Notes: generated by a model not told the origin, from the letters alone. Positions 14,406 through 23,383 are shown, numbered from the stretch's first letter. The stretch: DNA of 50,742 nucleotides from a bacterium (GCA_030611945.1 JAUWOV010000001.1:1-50742), one strand, 5' to 3'. Numbers and translations are program-made.

Positions 14406-16376
14406 TTATTTACCTGTTGAAATCCAGATCGGGCTTGACCATGCCATATGACCATCTGCCTGGGTAACCCGCATGTAATAATAAGTGTTTTTATTGAGCC
14501 GTTTTTTATCCACATACTCCAGAGTCACGGATTTTTCCCCCGGTTCTTCCGTATGAATATTCTGATTATTCCTGATGATCTCTACTTTTTCAAGTTTCTC
14601 CGTGCCTGATACTGATACTGATATTTTTATCGGCAATGCCGGATTGTCCACAGAGAATTCTTCTCCCATAAGATGTCCATTTAATTCAATATCTATAAGT
14701 ATTCTGGCACCTGTTGTGGCGTAACACCGCCGTTTTCTCAAGGCGTTGAATATTCCTTCTCTGCTCAATTCTTCAGTGATAACCGCTGTAAGGCCGCTTC
14801 GCTTGTATTTAAGAACAGGCGGAGGGTCTTCATTTGTCTTTAAATAACTGTTATGTTCGCTTAAGCGGGTGTCAATAGTTTCGTTCATCTCACTGCCCGG
14901 TCTTGAAATATGTGTATCTGAGCCGGCAGTAAATCCTAATTTGTATCCTCGCGCTAATGCATCCTGGACATAATTGCCTTTCTCTGTTTTATAAAGAGGG
15001 TAGGGGCATCCATAGTATTCCGAGCATCCATGTTTGGAATATATCTCCACCAACATTTCCATCTCTTCGTCATGATGATTCCAGTCAGTGCCCGGCACAG
15101 CCCATCCTATCGGATAACCTGGATGATGCGGAATCGTGATAGCGTTTTCTTTTTCCGATAATGTCTTCCAGAGTTTTTCCGGGGTATCCGCCTCTTTTCT
15201 GTAATGATGGTAAAGAGGTCTCCCATCGGAAGAATAATACACATTCTTATGTCCGAAATTTTTGTCGGGTGTAGAGCCAATGCCAGGCAGTGTCCATTCA
15301 TTCCCTAACAGCGTGACGAATTTTCCACACTCGTTATACCTGAACGTAGTATACGAGATAATGCTCCAGGCAGTCTCATTATTTTGCCAAAAACTGTCTA
15401 TCGGCAATTTGAACTTACCCAGTCCTCCGCATACGGCGTTTCTATTTGAAGAGACAAGATAAGAGGCATGGTCAGCTATAGCGCAAAAGTCCAGATTTTC
15501 CACATCCCGACCATACTGATAATAATAGTCCGGACTCTCCAGGCCATCAGAAAGAAAGGTGTGTCCGTGTATTTCTCCCCAATAGACATTGTGTTCTTTA
15601 TCATCTTCCCTGCATTGGACGGGATTGCTGGCAGCGACAAGATTATTCCCGGTATCTTTGGCTGTTATAGTGTGCAGTCCCGGAGAATTAAAAACAGCAT
15701 CAAATCTGTGTTTACCCTTATCATTTGGTATAAAAGCGTAATCTTCAGGTAATCGAACGTTTTTATCACTGCTCACAAAACTTACCCTGCCGGTATATCC
15801 AGACGCGGGATTCCCGAATCTGTCAAAAGCCCTTAAAACAAAGCTGAACGGTAATCTTGCTTTCGGGGTGGAATCCGCCACAAGGCTTAGCTGGACAGCC
15901 TTATCCGAAATCACATCCAGTCGGGAAATATCTTCCAGTCTCTCGTATTCATCATTGCCATACTGGTCTATCCAAACATTAAAAAGGACATTATGTGTAA
16001 AAGGCTTCATTGTATGCCCGGGGCATCTGCTCGTCCGATCTCCAAAGATGACAGTGACGGCATCGCCTTCTTTCAGGCAGCCATCTTCAATTTTTAGCTC
16101 AACACCCTTAAACATTATAGTGTCAACACAATTCAAAGAAACCGCGGCAACGCCTGAAATCTTAGCGCTAAGATATTCCGCTTTATCCGGATGGTCTGTT
16201 TGAGGGGGATACATGCATTCTCTCCCGTAAGCCATTATTCTTATTTTACCACCAGCATGAACCTCCTCTGACAGTGTTATTTTGATCTGCCAAGTTATTT
16301 GCCTGCCAACAATAGCGGGTTCCTTGCCCAAAATGGAAACCTTGCTGAATTTTATTTTTTTGCTTTCTAATGACAT
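14406..16376 (-). CDS. PHP-domain / DUF3604-like metallohydrolase, paralogue A (656 aa), substrate unknown
   Basis: Motifs YWGEIHGHTFLSDG, CAIADHA, PHHPG and GFTAGSDTH are PHP-type metal-ligand patterns. Beta-rich N- and C-terminal extensions flank them. No signal peptide. Confidence 0.7.
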   Translation of the reverse strand: MSLESKKIKFSKVSILGKEPAIVGRQITWQIKITLSEEVHAGGKIRIMAYGRECMYPPQTDHPDKAEYLSAKISGVAAVSLNCVDTIMFKGVELKIEDGCLKEGDAVTVIFGDRTSRCPGHTMKPFTHNVLFNVWIDQYGNDEYERLEDISRLDVISDKAVQLSLVADSTPKARLPFSFVLRAFDRFGNPASGYTGRVSFVSSDKNVRLPEDYAFIPNDKGKHRFDAVFNSPGLHTITAKDTGNNLVAASNPVQCREDDKEHNVYWGEIHGHTFLSDGLESPDYYYQYGRDVENLDFCAIADHASYLVSSNRNAVCGGLGKFKLPIDSFWQNNETAWSIISYTTFRYNECGKFVTLLGNEWTLPGIGSTPDKNFGHKNVYYSSDGRPLYHHYRKEADTPEKLWKTLSEKENAITIPHHPGYPIGWAVPGTDWNHHDEEMEMLVEIYSKHGCSEYYGCPYPLYKTEKGNYVQDALARGYKLGFTAGSDTHISRPGSEMNETIDTRLSEHNSYLKTNEDPPPVLKYKRSGLTAVITEELSREGIFNALRKRRCYATTGARILIDIELNGHLMGEEFSVDNPALPIKISVSVSGTEKLEKVEIIRNNQNIHTEEPGEKSVTLEYVDKKRLNKNTYYYMRVTQADGHMAWSSPIWISTGK

Positions 16377-16474
16377 TTTTATTTCTCCTGTTTCTATTTC
16401 ATCCTCTTTTTATAAAACACATTCAACACAATCTGTGACTGTCTTTGAATAATTTCTTTAAATTTTGCAAATCT

Positions 16475-21829: not shown

Positions 21830-21871
21830 GTCTTTTTCCCTTTCATTTGTAACAGATTAGAGTTTACTTTT

Positions 21872-23383
21872 TTAATATTCAGTGGTTTTACGTTCCTGTT
21901 TGCTTATTTCCTGAAAATCATCCGACCACTCCATTAAATACACAGCGGATTCAGCCGTACAGCCAAACCAGCATTCATAAGCGTCACCATGATGATTTGC
22001 CTGAGGAATGTCAAAACGATGGTCAACACCAAAGGTTGCCATTCTTCCATCCTCTTGCTGAAACCTGACCATGGTATTGGCTCCTGCAATGGCCTTGTGT
22101 AAATATTCTAACTTCCCAGTTGCTTTATACAGGTCCCTTAACAGCAGAACCCACTCGCCTGTATGAAAATCCATAGCCCAGTAACAGGCGTATTGCTCAA
22201 GGATGCTCGGATAATACGGCTGATAAGGAAGCGCAGGCTCCGGACCAAAAACAACAAACTGGTCTTCAATCCAACGATTAAGCCTTTGTGCTATTTTTAG
22301 ATAATCCGCGTTTTCTTCTTGATGTTTTATAAGATAGCGCGCGGTAGCAATAGCGTCACAAGGTTCAAGATTCTTAAATGGCTTCATATTAGGAATATCC
22401 TCGAACATTCCCTGCCATAGATGTGTTTTTACCGGGTTTTCAAGAATCCATTGAACAGCCTTTTCACGAGATTGCAGGTACTCGCTTCCGCCTGTTAAAT
22501 TATCAAGTTCCTCAAACAAAAGAACGGGAAATATTGCTGCTGAGGTATATTCTGCCACGACTTCTCCTGTTTCAGGATTTACTCGATAGGGCCAGCTTCC
22601 ATCGGGTCTCTGGTGTTTCTGTAAGACACCGGCAATATGCCGGGCATACTCCAGATACTTCTCTTGTTTTGTCGAATTAAACAGATGGATTATTGCCCTG
22701 CCAAGCAGTGCACTGCGAAAAAGGGTGATGGATTTACCCTCGCACCCGCCGCTGAATTCACCCTTTGAAATAGTGGAATAAGGCAGAAGAGGGAGAGCGT
22801 AGTTTTCAGGAAGCCTGTTTTCCAACAGCCAATCGCCCAGTTGAATGGCTCTTTTTAATAAATCGTCTCGTTGAATGGCATTATCTGTCCGCCGCGCGTA
22901 ACGCAAAAACGCGTTTATTATACCCGTATAGTTTAAACCAGGATATGATGCATGATAAGGCTTTCCGTTTATCTCAGCACAATGCCATATATAAGCAGGC
23001 AAGGAAGGATCGTAATTATCAGGATGTTCGTAGGAGGTCAAAAATTTTATTATCTTTTGGGTGCAGTTTCTATAATCTAAAGGATCTTGTTTTTTCCCGT
23101 CAAAGTCCGGGGATTTACTGAAACTGAATGTGCCGCCATAATCTATCATCTTGCTTTCGTCATCCAATGCTTTTATACACCACTGAATTGTTCCGCATTC
23201 TAAACTATTCCAAATTTCAGCAAAAGCAAATTCAGGCTTTGTGACTTTAAAAGAAATTGCCGGCTTCATGCCTGAGGCAACCATAATTTCATACTCTTTG
23301 ACCCATTTAATCGACCCCCAGCTAAATACCGGAGCATCAATAAACCTTATTGCATATTTATTCCAACTATTTAAAAAAATCAT
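21872..23383 (-). CDS. hypothetical protein (503 aa), possibly alpha/alpha-toroid glycosidase/lyase-like
   Basis: This long ORF has aromatic-rich helical-repeat character (e.g. DGSWPYRVNPETGEV, WQGMFEDI). I recognise no diagnostic motif and there is no signal peptide. Confidence 0.45.
   Translation of the reverse strand: MIFLNSWNKYAIRFIDAPVFSWGSIKWVKEYEIMVASGMKPAISFKVTKPEFAFAEIWNSLECGTIQWCIKALDDESKMIDYGGTFSFSKSPDFDGKKQDPLDYRNCTQKIIKFLTSYEHPDNYDPSLPAYIWHCAEINGKPYHASYPGLNYTGIINAFLRYARRTDNAIQRDDLLKRAIQLGDWLLENRLPENYALPLLPYSTISKGEFSGGCEGKSITLFRSALLGRAIIHLFNSTKQEKYLEYARHIAGVLQKHQRPDGSWPYRVNPETGEVVAEYTSAAIFPVLLFEELDNLTGGSEYLQSREKAVQWILENPVKTHLWQGMFEDIPNMKPFKNLEPCDAIATARYLIKHQEENADYLKIAQRLNRWIEDQFVVFGPEPALPYQPYYPSILEQYACYWAMDFHTGEWVLLLRDLYKATGKLEYLHKAIAGANTMVRFQQEDGRMATFGVDHRFDIPQANHHGDAYECWFGCTAESAVYLMEWSDDFQEISKQERKTTEY

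Follow-up and report, generated by a model that had tools for sequence, protein, structure and literature searches.

A five-gene block of hydrolase-like genes

The window analysed here, by which we mean the whole stretch of 50,742 nucleotides of bacterial DNA (GCA_030611945.1 JAUWOV010000001.1:1-50742), carries at positions 14406-23383 a block of five consecutive genes on the minus strand. These genes, referred to as A to E in the following, look like a set of about 9 kb of cytoplasmic hydrolase-like genes that stem from three uncharacterised families. A first-pass annotation, made by a model from the sequence, had put the block forward as the best candidate for an undescribed system. A scan for open reading frames (ORFs) returned identical coordinates for the five genes, and gaps of 23-98 nt between them:

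14406-16376, minus strand: gene A, 656 aa, DUF3604 / CehA-McbA-type PHP metallohydrolase
16475-18433, minus strand: gene B, 652 aa, second DUF3604 / CehA-McbA-type PHP metallohydrolase
18457-20136, minus strand: gene C, 559 aa, DUF6259 glycoside-hydrolase-like protein, predicted (beta/alpha)8 barrel
20207-21829, minus strand: gene D, 540 aa, second, highly divergent DUF6259 protein
21872-23383, minus strand: gene E, 503 aa, modelled N-terminal beta-sandwich and (alpha/alpha)6 six-hairpin barrel

The basic features that had been described for the block were recovered as well: all the quoted sequence motifs were found, at one site per protein; neither a signal peptide nor a transmembrane helix is apparent in any of the five proteins (no hydrophobic N-terminus, no 19-residue Kyte-Doolittle mean above 1.5); the product of gene E is rich in aromatic residues (F+W+Y = 14.1%); and a recount of the GC content in the five sampled 60-nt lines gave the same values (26, 31, 25, 20 and 10 of 60). 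The view that none of the five proteins belongs to a characterised pathway also holds, in that neither the profile searches nor the literature gave a functional account of the families: the literature search retrieved no functional study of DUF3604 (PF12228, IPR022028) and no mention of DUF6259 (PF19773) or of DUF6786, the family of a nearby gene in the same string. A search of the PDB with the single sequences of A, C, E and the DUF6786 protein matched nothing meaningful.

Genes A and B encode metallohydrolases of the DUF3604 family

Genes A and B both belong to the Pfam family DUF3604 (75.4 and 76.6 bits, respectively; cut-off 20.4) and both exceed the cut-off of 80 bits of the NCBIfam model for the CehA/McbA family metallohydrolase domain (NF038032; 96.3 and 87.3 bits). 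The two proteins share 41% identity over almost their entire length (BLASTP, E 3e-156). In an alignment of 25 sequences (A, B and 23 homologues) no variation is seen at H270, E360, H418, E444, D487 and H489 and hardly any at D304; the conserved PHP ligand set thus reads, in A numbering, H270, D304/H305, E360, H418, E444, D487 and H489. The two cut-offs and the conservation of the ligands bear out the initial proposal that A and B are PHP-type metallohydrolases. The AF2 model of A (pLDDT 88) predicts two N-terminal beta-sandwich domains (residues ~12-256), a catalytic barrel in which strands and helices alternate (~263-555) and a C-terminal beta-sandwich (~560-654), with disorder at residues 310-329 and 502-519; the ligand positions fall at or directly after predicted beta-strands.

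The HxH motif is intact in A (H270-G-H272) and has Gln as its second residue in B (EIHGQT), while the other metal-ligand motifs (DH, Glu, His, HH, DxH) are present in both proteins. The first-pass annotation had taken this substitution as a possible sign of a catalytic and a non-catalytic partner. Among 120 homologues, the second position of the motif is occupied by His in 61, by Gln in 48 and by Met in 2. Because Gln is frequent in the family and the other ligands are kept, the Gln of B is no sign of a degenerate paralogue, and the idea of such a pair loses its footing. The idea that B is a pseudo-enzyme on account of its HxQ motif was rejected for the same reason, the Gln being found in ~40% of the family.

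To our knowledge, CehA and McbA, which hydrolyse the carbamate ester carbaryl, are the sole characterised relatives of A and B. The resemblance consists of the scores above both curated cut-offs and of the PHP-type His/Asp/Glu ligand motifs. A and B differ from these enzymes in that the match to NF038032 is limited to residues 348-652, in having two additional N-terminal beta-sandwich domains, and in a context of sugar metabolism rather than of aromatic or pesticide degradation. By sequence, the family matches nothing in the PDB other than PHP phosphoesterases and an exoribonuclease, and these at the HxH..DH motifs; with the family profile, the phosphoesterase matches (3e0f, E 3e-4) are confined to that region. 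A and B thus share the HxH...DH region with the classical PHP phosphoesterases (3e0f, 7ug9, 3e38), but the likeness spans ~45 residues, the predicted barrel of A and B is far larger and has long inserts, and the second His of the HxH motif is replaced by Gln in the sizeable part of the DUF3604 family given above.

Genes C and D encode glycosidase-like proteins of the DUF6259 family

Genes C and D both pass the cut-off of the Pfam family DUF6259 (PF19773; 52.2 and 53.1 bits; cut-off 28.7) and are 29% identical to each other over ~370 residues (BLASTP, E 2e-44). Matches to GHL10, GH66 and DUF5696 were weak and below threshold. The family profile matches GH13 enzymes, among them glycosyltrehalose trehalohydrolase (1eha, E 8e-6) and neopullulanase; the aligned parts are the segment GGxxGFRxxIxxAHxxG, which corresponds to the beta3 region, and the beta4 strand (VDALHLD in C, LDAIFLD in D) that bears the nucleophile. 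On this strand lies the candidate nucleophile D408 of C with its equivalent Asp in D, and the candidate acid/base is E444 of C (LIGGEGI) with its equivalent Glu in D (LIGGESI). D408 and E444 are invariant across an alignment of eight sequences (A2). The pair of carboxylates would therefore stand on consecutive strands at GH13-like positions, and its catalytic role is proposed on these grounds. The DUF6259 cut-off and the match to the GH13 enzymes agree with the earlier suggestion of a glycosidase-like TIM barrel, and to judge from sequence, both C and D are of this type and share the invariant Asp and Glu.

The similarity of C and D to GH13 (clan GH-H) is at the profile level only and comprises the beta3 region, the beta4 pattern 'D-x-x-x-LD' and the Glu on the next strand. 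The Arg of GH13 region II (R-x-D), on the other hand, is absent, its place being taken by His in C (A-L-H-L-D) and by Phe in D (A-I-F-L-D); no match to the Pfam Alpha-amylase family was found for either protein, and all named GH families score below their cut-offs. As the Arg that defines GH13 is missing, C and D are best described as GH-like DUF6259 proteins and not as members of GH13.

The two pairs of genes had been described as duplicated. The nearest relatives of B are, however, P0098 (from a Planctomycetota metagenome-assembled genome (MAG); 53% identity), P0103 (48%) and P0096 (47%), with A following at 41.5%. C has more in common with P0216 (35%) than with D (26% in the alignment), and no homologue in alignment A2 exceeds 28% identity to D. 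A local tandem duplication of A/B and C/D was rejected in view of these closer outside relatives. Since B and C are closer to outside proteins than to their partners in the block, A/B and C/D are old paralogues that were brought together.

Gene E encodes a six-hairpin barrel protein

The product of gene E reaches no Pfam family cut-off, the best match being GH47 (20.6 bits, cut-off 22.9). The AF2 model (pLDDT 93) consists of an N-terminal beta-sandwich (~1-90) and a predicted (alpha/alpha)6 barrel of 12 long helices. A Foldseek search with this model gave 240 PDB matches at E<=1e-3; those among the 50 listed are mostly six-hairpin enzymes and include the GH76 alpha-1,6-mannanase 6u4z (3e-13) as well as cellobiose 2-epimerases, mannose isomerase, AGE and YihS, the epimerase/isomerase group with TM-scores of 0.51-0.56 by query and 0.6-0.71 by target; sequence identity is 10-14%. 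The model and the Foldseek matches give a more definite shape to what had been described as a helical-repeat protein, namely a modelled (alpha/alpha)6 barrel.

Weak Pfam matches are recurrent among the members of the E family: Pectate_lyase_2 (21/33), GH127 (15/33) and GH88 (11/33), with a best E-value of 7e-8 (Pectate_lyase_2) and no family cut-off reached. Carboxylates, Gln and Arg make up most of the invariant positions (Q258, D261, R267, D329, E396), and the single near-invariant His of the family is H407. AGE-type epimerases and isomerases have a catalytic pair of His and a Glu at the centre of the barrel. Compared with the known six-hairpin families (GH76, cellobiose 2-epimerase/AGE/YihS, PL2 pectate lyase and GH127), E shares the (alpha/alpha)6 barrel fold, on the evidence of its confident model, and differs in that it reaches no cut-off, carries an extra N-terminal beta-sandwich and has the one near-invariant His. 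Among 1.84 billion representatives, the family accounts for at least 456 clusters (50% identity) at E<=1e-30 and for 2267 at E<=1e-3, and no relative was found on the plasmids of PLSDB. It includes multi-domain proteins that can be as long as ~1500 aa, and no Pfam model scores above threshold for the family.

The block is foreign to its operon and bracketed by junction scars

The block lies within a string of 17 genes on the minus strand, which contains in reading order (PDH, pyruvate dehydrogenase; SDR, short-chain dehydrogenase/reductase; Zn-ADH, zinc-dependent alcohol dehydrogenase):

23494-31852 (span), minus strand: tartrate dehydrogenase, GntR/FCD regulator and CoA-acylating aldehyde dehydrogenase
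within the same span, minus strand: succinate-CoA ligase beta and alpha, then PDH-type (2-oxoacid dehydrogenase) E1alpha, E1beta and E2
14406-23383, minus strand: the block, in the order E, D, C, B, A
13505-14335, minus strand: SDR
12620-13501, minus strand: SMP-30/gluconolactonase
11586-12596, minus strand: DUF6786 protein, between the lactonase and Zn-ADH
10535-11566, minus strand: Zn-ADH

No terminator-like sites were found in the intergenic gaps of this string, and promoter-like sites occur at chance frequency (70 found, 69.8 expected). The short gaps and the lack of intergenic terminators fit a co-transcription of the block with the flanking genes.

The composition of the block sets it apart. 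Its GC content is 0.405, versus 0.333 and 0.350 for the flanking genes on the same strand, and the GC content at third codon positions (GC3) is 0.343-0.414 within the block, 0.205-0.282 in the four downstream genes and 0.200-0.261 in the seven genes upstream, as far as the GntR regulator. Relative to the other 36 genes of the window (GC3 mean 0.291, sd 0.057) the difference is significant (Mann-Whitney p = 5e-4). The block is not the sole atypical part: the gene for tartrate dehydrogenase (30797-31852) is a stronger outlier (GC 0.491, GC3 0.483) and, standing first in the string, may have been acquired horizontally in an event of its own. The protein itself scores 565 bits to TIGR02089 (cut-off 470).

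The borders are more telling. The 'intergenic' stretch of 110 nt between E2 and E (23395-23514) is a mosaic of two duplicated pieces, X' and Y', whose partners X and Y lie at the other end of the block:

23474-23514, minus strand: X', a duplicate of the ribosome-binding site and first 8 codons of SDR (MMLKGETA) that overlaps the 3' end of E2
14297-14337, minus strand: X, the SDR ribosome-binding site and start (MMLKDKIA), with decayed last E2 codons before it
23395-23477, minus strand: Y', a remnant of the gene A 3' end (~19 codons) and ~20 nt of 3' flank, directly upstream of E
14391-14473, minus strand: Y, the genuine gene A 3' end and 3' flank, partner of Y'

X' and X form a direct repeat of 41 nt (D6; 35/41 identical, 85%), and Y' and Y one of 83 nt (D2; 76% identical, with a 64-column core (CAGG..AAC) that is ~84% identical in a gapped local alignment) at a start-to-start spacing of 9004 nt. 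Y' translates in frame as RVLQEDGHMAWSSPIWISVS followed by a stop, and the matching end of gene A as RVTQADGHMAWSSPIWISTGK followed by a stop. The fusion of X' and Y' can be placed within ~7 nt, at a common TGCG, so that the order on the coding strand is E2-X'-Y'-E-D-C-B-A(Y)-53 nt-X-SDR. The stop codon of E2 overlaps an ATG (TTATGATG), and E2 and SDR are for this reason read as having once been adjacent and translationally coupled. The start of the SDR ORF as listed is MRRCFMMLK, of which the first five codons correspond to the decayed copy of the E2 3' end; the true start is likely the internal ATGATG that follows GGAGGTG. The duplicated SDR start behind E2 opens a junk ORF of 26 codons (MMLKGETASPSGRWSYGMVKSYMDFS, then a stop) that is coupled to the E2 stop.

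We infer from this arrangement that a cassette of about 9.0 kb was acquired horizontally and spliced into a catabolic operon, at a junction of E2 and SDR that was once contiguous and translationally coupled. The DNA would have been joined into the first SDR codons by microhomology-mediated recombination; its ends overlap by ~80 nt, as expected of DNA derived from an E-D-C-B-A unit that was circular or repeated in tandem, and the insertion would have duplicated 41 nt of the target and so left the SDR start intact. The junctions could alternatively have arisen by deletion, between an earlier copy of SDR and a third gene of the DUF3604 family. On either history, the five genes are a single structural unit that is distinct from its flanks. 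The block is of foreign origin, and its acquisition as a unit, which had been suspected from a handful of GC counts, is upheld by the step in GC3 and, more directly, by the duplicated junction fragments that bracket it. The scars record the splicing of a cassette into an operon without inactivation of the downstream gene.

The foreign composition, together with direct repeats whose recombination would excise a circle of 9,004 bp, could also be expected of a defence or mobile-element island. This we consider hardly credible: none of the five proteins matches a PADLOC model (E<=0.01), on which ground an anti-phage defence identity was rejected, no integrase, transposase or tRNA gene is found at the borders and no tRNA or Rfam element elsewhere in the window, and all five proteins have the folds of metabolic enzymes.

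The three families are carbohydrate-associated, each on its own

The genomic neighbourhoods of relatives were collected by two scans. The DUF3604 scan covered one genome per GTDB species and gave 80 loci with a relative of A/B (37 with at least 5 kb on both sides; 1.02 Mb of flanks in total). The DUF6259 scan covered metagenomes, used a four-sequence alignment as the query and gave 63 loci with a relative (0.54 Mb of flanks). The search for co-occurrence extended over 10 kb and used tblastn (E<=1e-5) as well as profile hidden Markov models (E<=1e-3) on ORFs of at least 80 aa. Neither of the other two families was found in any of 82 DUF3604-seeded, 67 DUF6259-seeded and 4 E-seeded loci; tblastn, in particular, detected no relatives of C, D or E in the DUF3604 loci and none of A, B or E in the DUF6259 loci. 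Likewise, no other locus has a second DUF6259 gene, and none has two DUF3604 genes by the strict HxH pattern. Given that the families do not co-occur in ~150 other loci, the association among the five genes rests on a single locus.

The undescribed 'system' that was put forward at the outset does not survive this test. In that reading, DUF3604 and DUF6259 (together with the helical protein) would form a recurrent multi-enzyme hydrolytic system, conserved as a unit. The tight packing of the genes on one strand, their shared composition and joint insertion, and the uncharacterised state of all three families would suit such a system, and there is a partial echo of it at a Planctomycetota locus with two DUF3604 genes, a GHL10 TIM-barrel gene, Zn-ADH and SDR; the uniformly negative co-occurrence counts and the absence of any other locus with such a doubling, for DUF3604 by the strict HxH pattern, nevertheless make it very unlikely. 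The five-gene combination is lineage-specific and not a conserved system.

The Planctomycetota locus is that of the closest relative of B and contains, apart from the second DUF3604 gene, Zn-ADH, SDR and GHL10, genes for a sugar ATP-binding cassette (ABC) transporter, a xylose-isomerase-like TIM barrel and a class II aldolase. Its two DUF3604 genes are ~8 kb apart within one sugar locus (L004, 1-1596 and 10001-11908), and the MAG has a third such gene on a different contig (L050). The neighbours of another DUF3604 gene (P0097) encode an Opp-type ABC transporter, a sulfatase, a Gfo/Idh/MocA oxidoreductase and an arylsulfotransferase, and a copy on a haloarchaeal megaplasmid lies among genes for a sulfatase, a sugar-phosphate isomerase, an amidohydrolase and Gfo/Idh/MocA proteins.

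These contexts bear on the possibility that A and B act independently of C, D and E and hydrolyse small-molecule esters or carbamates, in the manner of CehA/McbA, or phosphoesters, in the manner of PHP phosphatases and nucleases. Such an activity would accord with the scores above the NF038032 cut-off, with the PHP phosphoesterases and the exoribonuclease as the only PDB sequence matches, and with McbA, which depends on the histidines of its PHP-like domain for the hydrolysis of (the ester) carbaryl (PMC8292978). It is improbable in our judgement, because close homologues adjoin sugar ABC transporters, sulfatases, sugar dehydrogenases and isomerases, and because the Ig-like beta-sandwiches at both ends of the proteins recall multi-domain glycosidases.

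The neighbours of the DUF6259 genes (n=119) are enriched in xylose-isomerase-like TIM barrels (AP_endonuc_2, 13) and Gfo/Idh/MocA proteins (10), and also in ureidoglycolate-lyase-like cupins (7), GH39 (5) and GH42 (4). The nearer relatives of C adjoin ABC or major facilitator superfamily transporters, a GH13 enzyme, Zn-ADH and a sugar aminotransferase, and a DUF6259 homologue on a Hymenobacter plasmid lies inside a SusC/SusD locus with GH127, GH3 and GH18. Among the distant relatives from metagenomes, a five-gene arrangement is repeated in L096, L097, L101, L109 and L110 and, cut at one end, in L098, L116 and L118. By Pfam it comprises an ORF of ~480 aa with a weak GH5 match, a ureidoglycolate-lyase-like cupin of ~155 aa, DUF6259, Gfo/Idh/MocA and a xylose-isomerase-like TIM barrel, and has the appearance of a conserved operon in its own right.

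One homologue of E is found among genes for SGL (lactonase), SDR, a sugar ABC transporter, DUF4432 and Gfo/Idh/MocA, and two other neighbourhoods of E homologues (L001, L002) are unrelated contexts with no link to DUF3604 or DUF6259. The E homologue P0013 (from a Deltaproteobacteria MAG) lies directly downstream of the gene for a classical PHP-domain protein of 297-301 aa (PF02811; L002 8953-9846 and L003 6769-7674), which belongs to a PHP family other than DUF3604; this is the sole other adjacency of the PHP and E families that was observed. Taken separately, each of the three families is thus carbohydrate-associated, and the combination of the five genes is unique to the window.

The same data could be explained by a collection of co-inserted passengers, that is, of unrelated hydrolases without a common substrate that travelled together or accreted in the donor. 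The families do not co-occur elsewhere, their partners differ between genomes, and GC3 ranges from 0.34 to 0.41 within the block, all of which is to be expected of passengers. Yet all five proteins belong to carbohydrate-associated fold classes, the genes are separated by 23-98 nt in a single orientation without terminator-like sites in the gaps, and the SDR start was preserved by the insertion, so that the operon reads through the cassette; we therefore regard a mere collection as rather unlikely, if less so than the other alternatives considered here.

Proposed role of the cassette

The five proteins add new members to families that are catalogued but uncharacterised, and the locus is a catabolic carbohydrate cluster that was built by horizontal transfer. 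The explanation we prefer, which in our estimate is about as apt to be right as wrong, is that of an acquired cassette whose enzymes would process, in the cytoplasm, a decorated oligosaccharide or glycoside taken up from outside, and so feed the adjacent SDR and SMP-30 lactonase. A substrate, an order of steps and a co-regulation are inferred along the following lines. The oligosaccharide or glycoside would be imported and dismantled in the cytoplasm; C and D, as putative (beta/alpha)8 proteins with Asp on beta4 and Glu on beta5, and the predicted six-hairpin protein E would cleave or rearrange its glycosidic linkages; A and B would remove a non-glycosidic decoration, which might be an ester, carbamoyl, sulfate or phosphate group; and the sugar set free would be oxidised by the SDR dehydrogenase and the SMP-30 lactonase, whose genes lie next to the block.

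A number of observations weigh against this explanation. Apart from the lack of co-occurrence described above, the DUF3604 neighbours are heterogeneous: the most frequent among 120 are enolase-superfamily proteins (5), GT4 (5) and SDR (4). A Foldseek search with full-length A was swamped by Ig-like domains, and as the matches listed are only Ig-like or GH2-like multi-domain proteins with TM-scores <0.2, it lends the PHP barrel of A no structural confirmation. The fold of E is common to hydrolases, lyases and epimerases, and the chemistry of E is accordingly left broad. Finally, the window encodes no transporter, sugar-acid dehydratase or aldolase. The locus resembles oxidative, non-phosphorylative sugar loci in that glycosidase-like genes adjoin SDR, SMP-30 lactonase and Zn-ADH, with a GntR/FCD regulator upstream; it differs from them in the absence from the window of the functions just named and of SusC/SusD, and in the later insertion of its hydrolase genes. 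Without a SusC/SusD pair in the window, the locus also differs from a polysaccharide utilisation locus of the Bacteroidota type.

At present the locus thus stands as a single lineage-specific cluster, with a function that is proposed here, and not as a new kind of system. What it does is bring together DUF3604, DUF6259 and an unnamed six-hairpin family, none of which has a known function, beside sugar-oxidising enzymes, and this proximity offers a concrete start for biochemical screening. DUF3604 is common in uncultured phyla of glycan degraders (Planctomycetota, Poribacteria, Kiritimatiellia, Bathyarchaeia and Hydrogenedentota), where its genes recur in carbohydrate and sulfatase neighbourhoods, and the lead worth following is a biochemical one: if DUF3604 proteins indeed act on carbohydrate decorations, they would constitute a new enzyme class for glycan degradation. 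A bolder version, which we think unlikely, would hold that DUF3604 is an unrecognised class of carbohydrate-decoration hydrolases that strips imported oligosaccharides of sulfate, phosphate, carbamoyl or acyl groups and works alongside DUF6259 glycosidases and a new six-hairpin family, and that the 9,004-bp E-D-C-B-A unit with its direct repeats of ~80 nt is a catabolic cassette complete in itself, which moves between genomes via a circular or tandem intermediate.

Other genes of the minus-strand string and its surroundings

The DUF6786 gene has the lowest GC content of the window (0.288), and its product has no NCBIfam match and no PDB sequence match. A comparable place, next to SDR and SGL, is held by a DUF4432 gene in one of the E-homologue loci (L154). 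Near either end of the long catabolic string is a gene for an AAA_14/DUF4143 ATPase (8025-9194 and 32013-33227), the two being paralogues in divergent orientation (29% identity, E 1e-43); between the first of these and Zn-ADH lies a gene for a PBP5-type carboxypeptidase (9309-10451).

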